From Escherichia coli (GTDB lineage: Bacteria > Pseudomonadota > Gammaproteobacteria > Enterobacterales > Enterobacteriaceae), in assembly GCF_003334335.1 (NCBI RefSeq), contig NZ_QOWQ01000030.1: 64,000 nt of DNA. One strand, written 5' to 3'. The position numbers and the translations under genes were made by a program. Below are positions 6,110 through 15,681 of the stretch, in pieces; positions within the stretch are counted from its first letter, which is position 1, and every line of letters begins with the position of its first letter. The notes beneath the pieces are model-generated. The model searched no databases. It had not been told where the DNA came from and saw only the letters and a list, made by a program, of their open reading frames with translations.

Positions 6110-6436
6110 ATGAGTAAGAAACTGATTGCCTTATGTGCCTGCCCGATGGGCCTGGCTCACACCTTTATGGCCGCTCAGGCGCTGGAAGAAGCGGCGGTAG
6201 AAGCCGGTTATGAAGTGAAAATTGAAACCCAGGGCGCGGACGGTATCCAGAATCGCCTGACGGCGCAGGATATCGCCGAAGCGACCATCATCATCCACTC
6301 CGTGGCAGTTACCCCGGAAGATAACGAACGTTTCGAATCACGCGACGTTTATGAAATCACTTTGCAGGACGCAATTAAAAACGCTGCGGGCATCATCAAA
6401 GAAATCGAAGAGATGATTGCCTCTGAACAACAGTAA
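6110..6436 (+). CDS. fryB: PTS fructose-like EIIB component FryB
   Basis: ORF 6059..6436 trimmed to the ATG at 6110 (MSKKLIALCACPMGLAHTFMAA...), 108 aa; the CACPMG cysteine phosphorylation motif is typical of EIIB(Fru). Confidence 0.85.
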   Translation: MSKKLIALCACPMGLAHTFMAAQALEEAAVEAGYEVKIETQGADGIQNRLTAQDIAEATIIIHSVAVTPEDNERFESRDVYEITLQDAIKNAAGIIKEIEEMIASEQQ

Positions 6437-6457
6437 TATTCGACAGGGATAATTGTT

Positions 6458-7705
6458 ATGGCCATTAAAAAACGCAGTGCAACCGTTGTGCCTGGCGCAT
6501 CCGGTGCGGCAGCGGCAGTTAAGAATCCGCAGGCCTCTAAAACCAGCTTCTGGGGTGAACTCCCGCAGCATGTGATGTCAGGGATTTCACGCATGGTGCC
6601 GACCTTAATTATGGGCGGTGTGATCCTCGCTTTCAGCCAGCTGATTGCTTATAGCTGGCTTAAAATTCCTGCTGAGATCGGCATCATGGATGCTCTTAAT
6701 AGCGGGAAATTCTCCGGTTTCGACCTCTCCTTACTTAAATTTGCCTGGCTGTCGCAGTCCTTCGGCGGCGTGTTGTTTGGTTTTGCCATTCCGATGTTTG
6801 CTGCTTTTGTGGCGAACTCTATCGGTGGCAAACTGGCGTTCCCGGCTGGTTTTATCGGCGGGTTGATGTCTACCCAGCCGACGCAACTGCTGAACTTCGA
6901 TCCCAGCACTATGCAATGGGCGACCTCTTCGCCGGTGCCGTCCACCTTCATTGGTGCGCTGATTATTTCTATCGTTGCCGGTTACCTTGTGAAGTGGATG
7001 AACCAGAAAATCCAGTTACCGGATTTCCTGTTAGCGTTCAAAACCACATTTTTGCTCCCGATTCTTTCCGCCATTTTTGTCATGCTGGCGATGTACTACG
7101 TCATCACCCCCTTTGGTGGCTGGATCAACGGCGGTATCCGTACTGTGCTGACTGCCGCAGGGGAGAAGGGCGCGCTGATGTACGCAATGGGGATCGCCGC
7201 GGCGACAGCAATCGACCTTGGTGGCCCGATCAACAAAGCCGCAGGTTTTGTTGCCTTCAGCTTTACCACTGACCACGTATTACCGGTCACCGCTCGTTCT
7301 ATCGCTATCGTTATTCCGCCGATTGGTCTGGGGCTGGCGACCATTATCGACCGTCGTTTAACCGGCAAACGCCTGTTCAACGCTCAACTTTATCCGCAGG
7401 GTAAGACCGCCATGTTCCTGGCGTTTATGGGGATCAGTGAGGGTGCGATTCCGTTTGCGCTGGAAAGCCCCATCACCGCCATTCCGTCGTATATGGTCGG
7501 CGCTATTGTCGGCTCAACCGCCGCTGTCTGGCTGGGCGCAGTGCAATGGTTCCCGGAGTCCGCTATCTGGGCATGGCCGCTGGTCACTAACCTGGGCGTC
7601 TATATGGCGGGGATCGCGCTGGGGGCAGTCATAACTGCGCTGATGGTGGTGTTCCTGCGTCTGATGATGTTCCGTAAAGGCAAATTGTTAATCGATAGCC
7701 TGTAA
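6458..7705 (+). CDS. fryC: PTS fructose-like EIIC permease FryC
   Basis: 415-aa polytopic membrane ORF directly after fryB. Confidence 0.88.
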
Positions 7706-7719
7706 GAAGGAAAATCCAG

Positions 7720-8805
7720 ATGACATTACTCGCTTCGCTGCGCGACTGGCTTAAGGCGCAACAACTGGATGCAGTGCTTCTCTCCTCACGGCAGAACAAA
7801 CAGCCGCATCTGGGGATCTCCACCGGATCAGGTTATGTGGTGATTAGCCGTGAAAGTGCGCACATTCTGGTGGATTCGCGCTATTACGTTGAGGTGGAAG
7901 CCCGTGCGCAAGGCTACCAGCTGCATTTGCTTGACGCGACGAACACGCTTACCACTATCGTCAATCAAATCATTGCCGATGAACAGTTGCAAACGCTCGG
8001 TTTTGAGGGCCAGCAGGTGAGTTGGGAAACCGCGCACCGCTGGCAGTCTGAACTCAATGCGAAACTGGTTAGCGCCACGCCGGATGTGCTGCGGCAAATC
8101 AAAACGCCAGAGGAGGTGGAGAAAATCCGCCTCGCCTGTGGGATTGCTGATCGCGGTGCAGAGCATATTCGCCGCTTTATTCAGGCGGGGATGAGCGAGC
8201 GCGAGATAGCCGCTGAACTGGAGTGGTTTATGCGCCAGCAGGGCGCAGAAAAAGCCTCTTTTGACACCATTGTCGCCAGTGGCTGGCGTGGGGCGCTGCC
8301 GCACGGCAAAGCCAGCGACAAGATTGTTGCAGCGGGCGAGTTTGTCACTCTCGATTTCGGTGCGCTGTATCAGGGCTACTGCTCTGATATGACGCGCACC
8401 TTGCTGGTGAATGGCGAAGGGGTGAGCGCCGAATCTCACCCGCTGTTTAACGTCTATCAAATTGTCCTGCAGGCACAGCTCGCAGCAATCTCCGCGATTC
8501 GCCCCGGCGTGCGCTGCCAGCAGGTTGACGATGCCGCGCGCCGGGTCATTACAGAAGCAGGTTATGGCGACTATTTCGGTCATAACACCGGTCACGCTAT
8601 CGGCATTGAAGTTCATGAAGATCCGCGTTTTTCACCGCGGGACACCACGACGCTACAGCCAGGCATGTTACTGACCGTGGAGCCGGGGATTTATTTGCCA
8701 GGGCAAGGGGGCGTGCGCATCGAAGATGTTGTGCTGGTTACCCCGCAAGGCGCAGAAGTGCTCTACGCCATGCCGAAAACAGTGTTGCTCACGGGAGAGG
8801 CATAA
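7720..8805 (+). CDS. ypdF: Xaa-Pro aminopeptidase-like protein YpdF (peptidase M24 family)
   Basis: 361-aa ORF with the M24 metal-binding region ([13 protein letters not shown]); embedded in the fry cluster. Confidence 0.85.
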
Positions 8806-13222: not shown

Positions 13223-13234
13223 GAAAGTTCCCGA

Positions 13235-13969
13235 TTAAAGATGCATTAACTGGCGAAATTCTTTCACTTTGCTGCGGCTGACCGGCACTTCAAAATCCAG
13301 ATCTTTCAGTCGCAGAATGTAGGTGTTATTAAACCACGGTTCGATTTCGCGTATTTTGTTCAGATTGACACAAAATGAGCGATGGCAGCGGAAAAAATGC
13401 GACGGCGGCAGTTTGCTGCAAAATTCGGTAATGTTCATCGGCATTACGTAGGATTCACGCCGCGTATAGACAAAGGTCATTTTCTCGTGCGCTTCGGCGT
13501 AATAGATATCGTTAATTGGCGTGACGATTATTCGCTCATCTTTCACCAGATTAATGGTGTCATTCTCACGCGTTACCGTCGCGGCAGGCGTACTGCTGGT
13601 CTGCTGTTGTTGCCAGGCCGCTTCCAGTTTTTGCAGCATCCCGGTAATACGTGACTCCTGATACGGTTTGAGAATGTAGTCAAACGCCTCCAGTTCAAAC
13701 GCTTCTACCGCATGTTCTTTCCACGCGGTGATGAACACAATAAACGGTTTATGGGCGAACTGGCTGATGTTTTGCGCCAGCAACACGCCATCCAGCGACG
13801 GAATATTGATATCCAGAAAAATGGCGTCGACGCGGTTATGCTGCAAAAACTTCAACACGTCCAGACCGTCGTCAAAGGTGCCGACAATCTCCATCTGGCT
13901 GTGCTCTTTAATTAGCCAGCTCAGTTCCTGTTGTGCCAGGAATTCGTCTTCAACAATGATGACTTTCAC
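13235..13969 (-). CDS. ypdB: LytTR-family response regulator YpdB
   Basis: ORF track begins at a TTG at 13987; trimmed to the GTG at 13969 (cac on the + strand at 13967..13969), giving VKVIIVEDE... and 244 aa; receiver domain plus LytTR DNA-binding domain. Confidence 0.82.
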   Translation of the reverse strand: MKVIIVEDEFLAQQELSWLIKEHSQMEIVGTFDDGLDVLKFLQHNRVDAIFLDINIPSLDGVLLAQNISQFAHKPFIVFITAWKEHAVEAFELEAFDYILKPYQESRITGMLQKLEAAWQQQQTSSTPAATVTRENDTINLVKDERIIVTPINDIYYAEAHEKMTFVYTRRESYVMPMNITEFCSKLPPSHFFRCHRSFCVNLNKIREIEPWFNNTYILRLKDLDFEVPVSRSKVKEFRQLMHL

Positions 13970-13983
13970 AATATCACTCCGGC

Positions 13984-15681
13984 TCAAAGCAATAACGTAG
14001 CCTGTGAGGCGACTGGGGTGCGTTGGTTAGGAATGTAAAACGCAATTTCCGTCCCCGGCTCCAGGCGGCGGATATGCAGCCCCTCGCCATACAATAACTT
14101 CACGCGATGATGGACATTCAGCAGGCCAATTTTATTGCCCGGCATTTCATTCGCTTCGACCCGCTCAATCACCTTTGGATCGATGCCGTGCCCGGTATCT
14201 CGCACCGCAATGCGTACCCGATTTCCGCACTCTGCAACGCTGATGGTGACAACGCCTTTACCTTTGCAAGGCTGAATACCGTGGACAATGGCGTTCTCCA
14301 CCAACGGCTGGATCAGCAGGCTGGGAATGCAGCAATTCACCTCTTCATCAATATCATAGATAACCGTCAGCTTGTCACCAAAGCGGGCCTGCTCAATGGC
14401 AATATAGTCTTTAATTTGATACAGCTCTTTTTTGATATCGATTTGCTCATCGTCTTTTAATTCAATGTTATAGCGCAGATAACGCGACAGATTAAAGATC
14501 AACTGGCGAGCGGTATCCGGATTCAGACGGATTGACGATGAAATAGCGTTCAGAGCGTTAAACAGAAAATGGGGATTAATTTTGCTTTGCAGGGCGCGAA
14601 GCTCTGCCTTATTTGCCATTTCACGTAGCTGCTCGGCGCGTGAAACCTCCAGTTGCGTGGAGATGATTTGCGACAGACCGACCGCCATTTCCTGTAATGA
14701 CGAGGTGATCTGATGCGCGTGGCAGTAGTAAATTTTCAGCGTTCCGGTCACGACCCCTTTCTCCCACAATGGGATCACCAGCATGGAATGAATCTCTGGT
14801 GTGCGGTGGGCTTCATCATTGTTTTTAATGATGATTTTTCCGTAATTCATCGCCTGACGGGTAGTCGGGCTAATGAAGTCATCGCCATTCTGATAGTTAT
14901 GTTCACCCACGCCAACATAGGCCAGCACATGATCGGTATTAGTAATCGCCACCGCATCGGCGTGAATGTCATCGCGGATAATTTCGCAGACCTTGCGTAA
15001 TGACTCGCTATTGACATGGCGAAACAGCGGTAGCGTTTTGTTGGCGATATCCAGCGCCAGCTTGGCCTGCCGCGCGGCGCTGGCCTCTTTTTCGCCCTCA
15101 ACGCTTTGCACCAGAAGCACAATAAAGCCGATACAGACGCTACCGAGGATCATTGGAATGCCGATTTTAGAGACGATATCGATCCCCAACGCGGTAGTTG
15201 GTGCCCAGACAATTACCAGAATCATGGTCAACGTCTCACACAACATGCCGCCGAGAATACCGACGCGCCAGCGCTGTGCTTTGGGGATTTTCAGGTTGAT
15301 CCAGCCCGATATACAACCCGCCAGAATGCTGGTGATAAAGCAGGGGATCGCCGTCACGCCGCCGATATCAATTAAATACCGGTGAATACCCGCAATCACG
15401 CCGGTAATGATGCCTACCCACGGGCCAAACAGAATCCCGCCGGACATCACCGCGATAATACGTACGTTCACCAGCGAGCCTTCTACGGGAACGCCGGACC
15501 AGGTGCTGAACAGGGCGAACAGCGAGAAAATGGCGGTAACGGCGAGCAATTCTTTTGGGGAGTGCGCCGACTTGTGCAACAGTTCGCGAAACAGGCGGAT
15601 ACGGATGAGAAAGAACAGGCAGATAAGCATTAACGCTGCCCGATCGAAGACCGCCAGCAGCATGTTGAATATTTCGTGCAC
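13984..15681 (-). CDS. ypdA: Sensor histidine kinase YpdA (LytS-type 5TM sensor, GAF, HisKA/HATPase)
   Basis: 565-aa ORF with an N-terminal multi-pass membrane domain and C-terminal kinase motifs; the stop overlaps the ypdB 5' end. Confidence 0.88.

Follow-up and report, generated by a model that had tools for sequence, protein, structure and literature searches.

The phosphotransferase systems (PTS) closest to the one described here, MngA/MngB of Escherichia coli and the split IIA/IIB/IIC operons with a GH38 gene found in Firmicutes and Fusobacteria, are Fru-family systems for a sugar carried on a small acidic aglycone. In both, the phospho-conjugate is cut in the cytoplasm by an enzyme encoded directly downstream. 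We compared with these systems the fry/ypd region of E. coli (fryB-fryC-ypdF-ypdE-fryA, followed on the opposite strand by ypdC, ypdB and ypdA), which occupies positions 6110-15681 of a 64,000-nucleotide stretch of DNA (contig NZ_QOWQ01000030.1 of assembly GCF_003334335.1; hereafter, the window). The fry genes also encode a Fru-family PTS, but two aminopeptidases and no glycosidase are encoded downstream of the permease, and the system has its own enzyme I (EI)-HPr-IIA protein. The GH38-linked permeases share 50-62% identity with FryC, and on a tree the two kinds, GH38-linked and peptidase-linked, interleave; E. coli MngA, a fused IIABC protein, is more distant from FryC. The fry system resembles a mannosylglycerate-type PTS but is not a member of that group. 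On the comparative evidence presented below, we think it somewhat probable that fry is a PTS module for glycosyl-amino acids or glycosyl-peptides regulated by YpdC. The more specific version, with mannosyl-Ser/Thr(/Cys) peptides as the substrate, is a tentative proposal that we would sooner doubt than accept.

Conjugates of sugars and amino acids are imported by gfr of Salmonella (a glucoselysine/fructoselysine PTS), frl of E. coli and fra of Salmonella (fructose-asparagine), and a sugar phosphate and an amino acid are then released. These systems combine SIS-domain deglycases or kinases with Man-family PTS or non-PTS carriers, and they act on N-linked Amadori or Heyns adducts. None of those enzyme types is present in fry loci. 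The staphylococcal Cys-Gly-3M3SH pathway also processes a conjugate stepwise, with uptake by a peptide transporter and no sugar on the conjugate. Its two enzyme types, a dipeptidase and a PatB lyase, both occur in fry-like operons of the Clostridioides difficile type (the name of the pathway is that of NCBIfam model NF052477). Within E. coli, frvABXR (L005) and sgcXBCQAER (L006) are, like fry, uncharacterised PTS operons with an embedded M42 peptidase gene (frvX and sgcX), but neither has an M24 partner or an EI of its own, and sgc is of a different PTS family and carries an epimerase. Regulation differs as well: fry has the AraC-type YpdC, frv has FrvR, with domains of the PRD/EIIA type, and sgc has a putative regulator of its own, SgcR. 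All three M42 paralogues of E. coli K-12 (YpdE, FrvX and SgcX) lie inside uncharacterised PTS operons. In malX-malY, a PTS permease is co-transcribed with a pyridoxal phosphate-dependent lyase of the PatB family, as in Firmicute fry-like operons, but MalX is a Glc-family IIBC protein and peptidases are missing, while the fry operon of E. coli has no lyase. The malX-malY pair of K-12 (L096, 3356-6130) represents a second pairing of an orphan PTS with a beta-lyase.

The fry locus is already named and annotated, both of its peptidases have solved structures, and its substrate is a genuine, long-recognised gap. An earlier note, made from this DNA sequence alone, described the physiology of the cluster as unresolved, which appears correct: fryA is listed as having no assigned function and the substrate of FryABC is stated to be unknown (PMC5364489, 2017), and no substrate or function is assigned to the fry PTS in the searchable literature, which holds incidental mentions only. 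A literature search for work tying a PTS, an Xaa-Pro peptidase and a PatB C-S lyase to glycopeptides gave no matches. A preprint on thioproline and Xaa-Pro was considered as a link to YpdF and dropped, as it deals with PepP. For the M42 peptidases, it has been reported that E. coli has three and that YpdE is dodecameric and characterised (PMC3511314, citing Zheng et al. 2005, J Bacteriol 187:3671).

The evidence that carries our interpretation is the gene context of FryC-type permeases. Relatives of FryC are few: at E <= 1e-30, a search of 1.84 billion proteins gave 54 representative clusters (50% identity). Scanning one genome per species yielded 80 loci with permeases 50-100% identical to FryC; three more were added, giving 83 loci, 81 of them informative, and neighbours were tabulated by tblastn, NCBIfam and a context-labelled IIC tree. 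An M24 peptidase gene lies next to the permease at 64 of the 81 informative loci, from Enterobacterales to Clostridia, and M24 and M42 genes are present together at 51. The clostridial order is regulator-IIA-IIB-IIC-M24-M42-"aminotransferase" (Hungatella, Enterocloster, Ruminococcaceae, Lachnospiraceae, Breznakia and others), and over their full length the clostridial peptidases are 46% (YpdF) and 43% (YpdE) identical to those of E. coli. A sister group, comprising C. difficile, Pelosinus, Lucifera, Geosporobacter and Anaerosolibacter, has the order IIA-IIB-IIC-M24-"aminotransferase" with an M20 dipeptidase gene upstream. Rahnella loci resemble this second group in having M24 and usually M20, with no lyase detected. 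This distribution suggests that the coupling of PTS and peptidases is ancient and that the peptidases are an integral part of fry.

Such persistence bears directly on one alternative, in which fry is a plain hexose or ketose PTS and YpdE and YpdF are housekeeping aminopeptidases that merely share its transcript. Adjacency of the type IIC-M24-M42 or IIC-M24 (with or without M20) is retained between phyla while flanks, regulators and IIA/EI arrangements vary, and the sole alternative partner of these permeases is an alpha-mannosidase, which acts on an imported phospho-glycoside. Unlike fruBKA, the operon also encodes neither a sugar kinase nor an isomerase or aldolase to process a free ketose. 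A plain sugar PTS would account for FryB, FryC and the IIA domain of FryA scoring best on fructose-type PTS models, for the other cryptic fructose-like PTS paralogues of E. coli (frv, frw), and for the two peptidases, which reportedly hydrolyse ordinary peptides. Overall, we consider this alternative unlikely.

Two individual loci should be mentioned. In an Enterobacterales metagenome-assembled genome (MAG; L048), a same-strand ypdC-like gene (45% identity) is followed by fryB-fryC-M24-M42-fryA and then by a PatB-like lyase gene, an arrangement that may connect the operon forms of Firmicutes and E. coli. A locus labelled Chryseobacterium sp. 18061 (L038) is a typical enterobacterial rna-fry-ypdC locus, closest to that of Pluralibacter; this assembly is probably contaminated or mislabelled.

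Genes that accompany the peptidases, or replace them, give clues to the substrate. The Firmicute "aminotransferase" encoded after the peptidases is a PatB-family C-S beta-lyase (TIGR04350, 345 and 340 bits; cutoff, 340) that is 40% identical to E. coli MalY over its full length. It is present at 25 of the 83 loci, all in Firmicutes except for the Enterobacterales MAG described above. No PatB-family lyase gene is present in the fry operon of the window, where the ypdC stop codon lies 2 bp past that of fryA. AlaC, an aminotransferase encoded beyond ypdA, was considered as a PatB remnant and rejected, as tblastn gave no match between it and the L007 lyase below E = 1e-6. The M20 protein of C. difficile belongs to the PepV/Sapep dipeptidases and scores 217 bits on NF052477, the model for the Cys-Gly-3M3SH dipeptidase. 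In three lineages (L058, L063 and L074), manA, which encodes a class I mannose-6-phosphate isomerase, is the last gene of the operon, on the same strand after the PatB gene, and in the C. difficile group (two more lineages) it is adjacent but divergent. Altogether, manA accompanies 6 of the 30 non-enterobacterial peptidase-type loci, against a rough expectation of ~0.75% for a random locus.

At 17 loci without peptidase genes, a gene for a GH38 MngB-like alpha-mannosidase (616-928 bits) directly follows the IIC gene; neither the window nor any of the enterobacterial fry loci has a GH38 gene. In a neighbour-joining tree of IIC proteins, mannosidase-linked and peptidase-linked permeases interleave. 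GH38 is also present at all of four loci with more distant permeases (39-44% identity), GH13 at three of them, and a glycerate kinase gene, the signature of glycosyl-glycerate use, at two (P0131 and P0133). As no glycerate kinase gene was found near the 80 FryC-type permeases, where it was sought as a signature of mannosylglycerate, the GH38-linked sister loci are alpha-mannoside systems and not demonstrably mannosylglycerate systems. These patterns suggest that the permease lineage handles mannose-type sugars on a small acidic aglycone and that, where the aglycone is an amino acid or peptide, aminopeptidases and a beta-lyase would take the place of a glycosidase. The sugar would most likely be of the alpha-mannosyl type, on Ser, Thr or Cys. 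The suggestion in the earlier note that the substrate is glycosylated or peptide-linked thus gains comparative support, with peptidases conserved across phyla, a beta-lyase joining them in Firmicutes and an alpha-mannosidase in sister loci.

The same enzymes are compatible with a different linkage. In this alternative, the substrate is a sugar-bearing thiol or cysteine S-conjugate (S-glycosyl-cysteine peptides, sugar-cysteine adducts or bacillithiol-type compounds) from which the peptidases release a Cys conjugate and the lyase then cuts the C-S bond. The Firmicute lyase belongs to the PatB C-S lyase family with scores at or beside the curated cutoff, the C. difficile M20 protein matches a dipeptidase model for a thiol conjugate, and the nearest permease relatives with a glycerate kinase point to transport of a sugar-hydroxyacid conjugate. 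Natural S-glycosides, however, are rare. Genes of thiol metabolism are also missing from the loci examined, and the operon of E. coli and most Enterobacterales lacks the lyase. The S-conjugate reading is a sub-variant of the glycosyl-peptide model, with the same mechanism and a different linkage; like a plain sugar PTS, it is in our view unlikely.

We next consider which regulator belongs to fry. The module has two main chromosomal locations, one between glk and alaC and the other between rna and a flavin reductase gene. At the second of these, in Pseudenterobacter and a related contig, IIB-IIC-M24-M42-FryA is accompanied by a convergent AraC-type gene. The AraC protein at that site is a full-length YpdC orthologue (61-65% identity), and no LytS/LytTR genes are present there. 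Salmonella enterica arizonae and diarizonae have glk-fry-ypdC-alaC without ypdBA. Across the 34 complete enterobacterial loci, ypdC adjoins fry in 31, whereas ypdBA does so in 11, all of them Escherichia, Citrobacter or Pseudocitrobacter. We propose from this distribution that the functional module consists of six genes, fryB-fryC-ypdF-ypdE-fryA and ypdC, with ypdC belonging to fry and not to YpdA/YpdB, and that ypdBA is probably an evolutionarily recent, lineage-specific neighbour that the module would not need. In one Citrobacter amalonaticus locus (L025, 16067-21197), a xylonate-catabolism island (GntP transporter, YjhG dehydratase, aldolase and IclR regulator) follows fryA in place of ypdCBA.

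A coupling of fry to pyruvate sensing, in which YpdA/YpdB and YpdC control fry, or fry feeds pyruvate signalling, and the whole 9.6-kb block is one regulon, is very unlikely given this distribution of ypdBA. YpdA/YpdB is a pyruvate-responsive system whose published target is yhjX; in Yersinia and Aeromonas its genes lie beside genes of the yhjX type, and Salmonella lacks it (PMC5552118). The tandem YpdB motif GGCATTTCAT-N11-GGCATTTCAT (PMC4847170) does not occur anywhere in the window, and control of fry by YpdB was rejected on this ground. What a pyruvate link has in its favour is the physical adjacency of the genes, the ypdA-ypdB-ypdC gaps of 12-14 bp, the listing of these three genes as one operon (PMC2731931), and the pyruvate that beta-elimination in the Firmicute pathway, if real, would yield. 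A lone perfect YpdB half-site, GGCATTTCAT, lies at 14141-14150 within ypdA on the opposite strand, has no tandem partner and is probably a chance match. The earlier note had correctly placed ypdC, ypdB and ypdA downstream of fryA on the opposite strand, but the link of ypdBA to fry that it implied, and the functional meaning it saw in a pyruvate-type neighbour, are unsupported by these data, and ypdC, which it grouped with the two-component system, is placed by the evidence with the fry module.

Footprinting of the fryB upstream region suggests how the module may be controlled (Table 1). We aligned 16 fryB upstream regions from both chromosomal sites. Besides the ribosome-binding site, the only conserved blocks are a CRP-like site (80% consensus, GA....C.TCACA.TTC), two direct repeats and a -10 hexamer. 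The hexamer is part of CATAATC in 14 of the 16 regions and of CATACTC in Hafnia and Serratia. The two repeats are identical at 12 of 16 positions and have a 20-bp period. The two repeats were then searched for as one composite motif with at most 4 substitutions. Of 38 enterobacterial loci, 36 have a match upstream of fryB (83-92 bp from the start codon in most and up to 120 bp in two), with no other match in 1.46 Mb of enterobacterial loci and none in 1.65 Mb of non-enterobacterial sequence. A generic promoter scan and a repeat search had missed the fryB promoter and the imperfect repeats, the promoter because of its poor -35; phylogenetic footprinting recovered both. The glk stop codon is at 5891, and the terminator-like hairpin that follows it is predicted to mark the upstream boundary of the fry transcription unit.

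The layout can be compared with that of araBAD, a class II AraC-type activated promoter in which CRP binds upstream, two direct half-sites overlap the -35 and the -35 itself is poor. The fryB region shares an upstream CRP-like site, which is centred ~92 bp upstream of the predicted transcription start, as well as direct repeats reaching the -35 and a good -10 combined with a poor -35. It differs in that its half-sites are unrelated to araI and in that its regulator, YpdC, has a sensor domain matching no Pfam family. From half-site sequence and spacing, we infer that the CRP-like sequence is a CRP site. YpdC would bind at both repeats and activate fryB; as the only AraC-family gene product travelling with the module, it is the obvious candidate activator.

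Table 1. Predicted control elements and genes of the fry/ypd region, in window coordinates.
Feature	Position	Strand	Assignment	Basis
Terminator-like hairpin after glk	5905-5928	+	10-bp stem, 5 GC pairs, T-rich tail	Terminator scan
CRP-like site, gtcGA-N6-TCACA	5980-5995 (GA-N6-TCACA, 5983-5995)	+	Right half perfect and conserved, left half weak	
Direct repeat 1, ATTAATTCTCCAGTAA	6011-6026	+	Proposed distal YpdC half-site	
Direct repeat 2, ATTATTTGTCTGGTAA	6031-6046	+	Proposed proximal YpdC half-site; abuts -35 position	
-10 hexamer, CATAAT	6068-6073	+	Predicted fryB promoter; no good -35	
fryB	6110-6436	+	PTS enzyme IIB (Fru family)	Open reading frame list, RefSeq of E. coli C, NCBIfam
fryC	6458-7705	+	PTS enzyme IIC permease, Fru family; branch of permeases coupled to alpha-mannosidases	
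ypdF	7720-8805	+	M24B Xaa-Pro-type aminopeptidase, cytoplasmic	NCBIfam, PDB 5CNX
ypdE	8805-9842	+	M42 (TET-type) aminopeptidase, cytoplasmic	NCBIfam, PDB 1YLO, PMC3511314
fryA	9867-12362	+	Fused HPr-EI-IIA-Fru multiphosphoryl transfer protein	RefSeq, NCBIfam
ypdC	12365-13222	-	AraC-family regulator	NCBIfam, Pfam
ypdB	13235-13969	-	LytTR response regulator of pyruvate-responsive YpdA/YpdB	RefSeq, NCBIfam, PMC5552118
ypdA	13984-15681	-	LytS-type sensor histidine kinase	RefSeq, PMC5552118

The cluster genes are intact. None has an internal stop codon, and in comparisons with six other Enterobacterales dN/dS (omega) was 0.01-0.17 for all eight genes (0.03-0.11 for fryC), values that are approximate, dS being saturated, though far below 1. 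FryA keeps the motifs GLHARP (HPr His15), TSHTLILAR (EI His298), GICGE (EI Cys611) and AIPH (IIA His747), and FryB has an N-terminal phospho-acceptor cysteine, Cys11, within CPMGLAHT. The metal ligands of YpdF, placed by motif, are D212, D223, H292, E321 and E335 (D-D-H-E-E), and YpdE keeps all of its metal and catalytic motifs (HxDE, DDR, EE, D and a C-terminal H). Neither peptidase has a signal peptide. A pseudogene reading was rejected on the dN/dS values and the intact motifs. The genes are not decaying, though "cryptic" may still fit the cluster if the word means unexpressed in laboratory culture.

Gene spacing suggests co-transcription. The intergenic gaps on the plus strand are, in order, 21, 14, -1 and 24 bp, with the ATG of ypdE overlapping the stop codon of ypdF (TAATG). 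Internal promoter-like sites (11, versus 9.1 expected from shuffled sequence) and terminator-like sites (11, versus 12.8) show no excess over chance. In a published table, "fryBC ypdF ypdE fryA" and "ypdA ypdB ypdC" are given as two separate operons (PMC2731931). Short gaps, the lack of excess internal sites and this listing lead us to predict that fryB-fryC-ypdF-ypdE-fryA is a single transcription unit. The stop codons of fryA and ypdC are convergent and 2 bp apart with no terminator (12360-12367), so transcripts of either unit must extend antisense into its neighbour, and there may be mutual interference or feedback between the two units. The fryA/ypdC junction is 0-3 bp at the other chromosomal site (L002 and L003) and ~0.3-1.1 kb in most Citrobacter loci.

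Some strain-level variation was also seen. In some E. coli genomes, fused FryC-YpdF or FryC-YpdE proteins of 653-688 amino acids are annotated (P0080, P0081, P0085 and P0112), and many E. coli FryC calls are N-terminally shorter (379-384 amino acids). These calls imply strain-level frameshifts, deletions or differing start-codon calls. In Escherichia sp. MOD1-EC7003 (L017, 12348-13328), the ypdE match has 82% identity and fryA starts ~82 bp earlier than in sister Escherichia loci, which suggests a deletion inside ypdE in that lineage.

The fry/ypd region is core E. coli DNA. Positions 6110-15681 are 100% identical to several complete E. coli chromosomes, and the fry region is carried by 5425 of 5426 complete E. 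coli genomes, with at least 80% of its length in one place in 5414. The RefSeq annotation used here is that of an E. coli C segment (L001) identical to the window, in which window coordinates equal locus coordinates + 1109; it places glk on the upstream side of the cluster and alaC on the downstream side. The gene identities, the order fryB-fryC-ypdF-ypdE-fryA and the strands given in the earlier note were all confirmed by open reading frames, this annotation and NCBIfam. FryB matches TIGR00829 (IIB-Fru; 92 bits, cutoff 76.85). FryC is borderline for TIGR01427 (IIC-Fru; 157.0 bits, cutoff 157.55), and Pfam PF02378 is recorded for its orthologues. FryA has a IIA type-2 domain at residues 687-812 (TIGR00848; 138 bits, cutoff 103.5) and an EI domain (TIGR01417; 506 bits, cutoff 341.7), while its HPr domain scores under the cutoff (TIGR01003; 39.5 bits, cutoff 47.9) though the HPr motif is intact. 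YpdF matches the M24 model NF007310 (819 bits, cutoff 393) and is a near-exact match to PDB 5CNX ("Aminopeptidase YpdF"), with one substitution; YpdE matches the M42 model NF007421 (681 bits, cutoff 412), and its Shigella orthologue has a structure, PDB 1YLO.

On the minus strand, YpdC carries the C-terminal double helix-turn-helix (Pfam HTH_18, residues 204-281, E = 2.9e-20). No Pfam family matched its N-terminal ~180 residues, and this sensor domain therefore gives no hint of the inducer. YpdB has full-length NCBIfam matches (LytR model, 171 bits; BtsR model, 150 bits). For YpdA, NCBIfam gives weak generic histidine-kinase matches (~29 bits), and its identity is that of the RefSeq annotation. 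It should also be noted that fryA (L001, 8758-11253) carries the symbol "ptsP" in RefSeq/PGAP, a label that could mislead automated analyses. The real ptsP, which encodes the EI of the nitrogen PTS, is a different gene at another location. No known RNA family (Rfam) was found at 4800-17500. Outside the cluster, a 57-nt "hypothetical protein" coding sequence (L001, 500-556; window ~1609-1665) overlaps the start of mntH and is possibly a leader peptide or an annotation artefact.

We propose the following mechanism for the glycosyl-peptide module, which would be a catabolic PTS, inducible and self-contained. YpdC with its ligand would bind the direct repeats abutting the -35 and, together with CRP-cAMP, would activate the otherwise weak fryB promoter. 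A phosphoryl group would pass from phosphoenolpyruvate (PEP) to FryA-EI His298, FryA-HPr His15, FryA-IIA His747 and FryB Cys11; the motifs are observed and the chemistry is assigned by homology. FryC would import the conjugate, with phosphorylation of its sugar. In the cytoplasm, YpdE (broad) and YpdF (Xaa-Pro-type) would then strip N-terminal residues, giving amino acids and a phosphosugar-amino acid. YpdF is reportedly an Xaa-Pro aminopeptidase that can also act, to a limited extent, as a Met-aminopeptidase, and YpdE is reported to be a broad exo-aminopeptidase; their activity on plain peptides comes from published work, whereas action on glyco-conjugates is what the model supposes. In Firmicutes, release might occur by PatB beta-elimination, giving sugar-6-phosphate, pyruvate and NH3, with ManA converting mannose-6-phosphate, and E. 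coli would have to rely on a lyase from another locus, for example MalY or MetC; both of these last steps are speculative. The substrate could come from O-mannosylated proteins of fungi, yeast or the host in the gut.

Also very unlikely is a mainly regulatory or sensory PTS, whose relay would respond to a metabolite or to the PEP/pyruvate state and would regulate the peptidases or YpdC by phosphorylation instead of supplying carbon. In its favour, FryA is a dedicated EI-HPr-IIA fusion that keeps the relay separate from the general PTS, Firmicute versions are under regulators with PRD and EIIA domains that are themselves PTS-phosphorylated, and an in-frame deletion of fryA gives a fitness gain in prolonged LB culture (PMC5364489). 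Against it, the IIC permease is complete and strongly conserved, YpdC has no PRD or PTS-regulation domain, and the sister loci are ordinary catabolic operons of a permease and a hydrolase.

Several observations weigh against fry as a YpdC-regulated PTS for glycosyl-amino acids or glycosyl-peptides. Nothing in the operon of E. coli encodes a glycosidase, a lyase or a deglycase that could release the sugar phosphate, and the pathway as drawn is incomplete in this organism. PatB-family enzymes known to us cleave C-S bonds, and PatB beta-elimination of an O-linked phosphosugar is a speculative extrapolation. YpdE and YpdF were reportedly characterised on ordinary, unmodified peptides. The evidence for coupling of PTS and peptidases is gene context throughout, and the neighbour-joining IIC tree has no bootstrap support. 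The loci with manA are only 6 of 30, are phylogenetically clustered and correspond to ~4 independent events. On the regulatory side, the promoter function and transcription start of fryB, the CRP site and YpdC binding are predictions. Three loci (L025, L026 and L032) keep the operator with no ypdC within 10 kb, and the listing of ypdC in one operon with ypdAB in E. coli (PMC2731931) means that there may be some cross-talk.

The substrates of the orphan PTS operons fry, frv, frw, sgc and malX of E. coli K-12 have been unknown since the genome was sequenced. Our analysis reveals no new kind of system; it makes an old orphan-transporter question directly testable. What it adds is the synteny of PTS and peptidase genes across phyla, the definition of a module of fry and ypdC, a predicted promoter and operator, which offers a way to switch on the silent fry operon, and a narrowed substrate class. 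It is possible, though we hold this only tentatively, that fry and its Firmicute relatives are the first PTS for glycopeptides or glycosyl-amino acids, taking up alpha-mannosyl-Ser/Thr (or Cys) peptides, with release by PatB beta-elimination in Firmicutes. If true, this would add glycopeptides to the PTS substrate range and would give TET/M42 and YpdF-type peptidases a physiological role in gut bacteria, including C. difficile and Enterocloster. The mannosyl-peptide reading, if true, would also account for the presence of all three E. coli M42 proteins and of MalY in orphan PTS operons.

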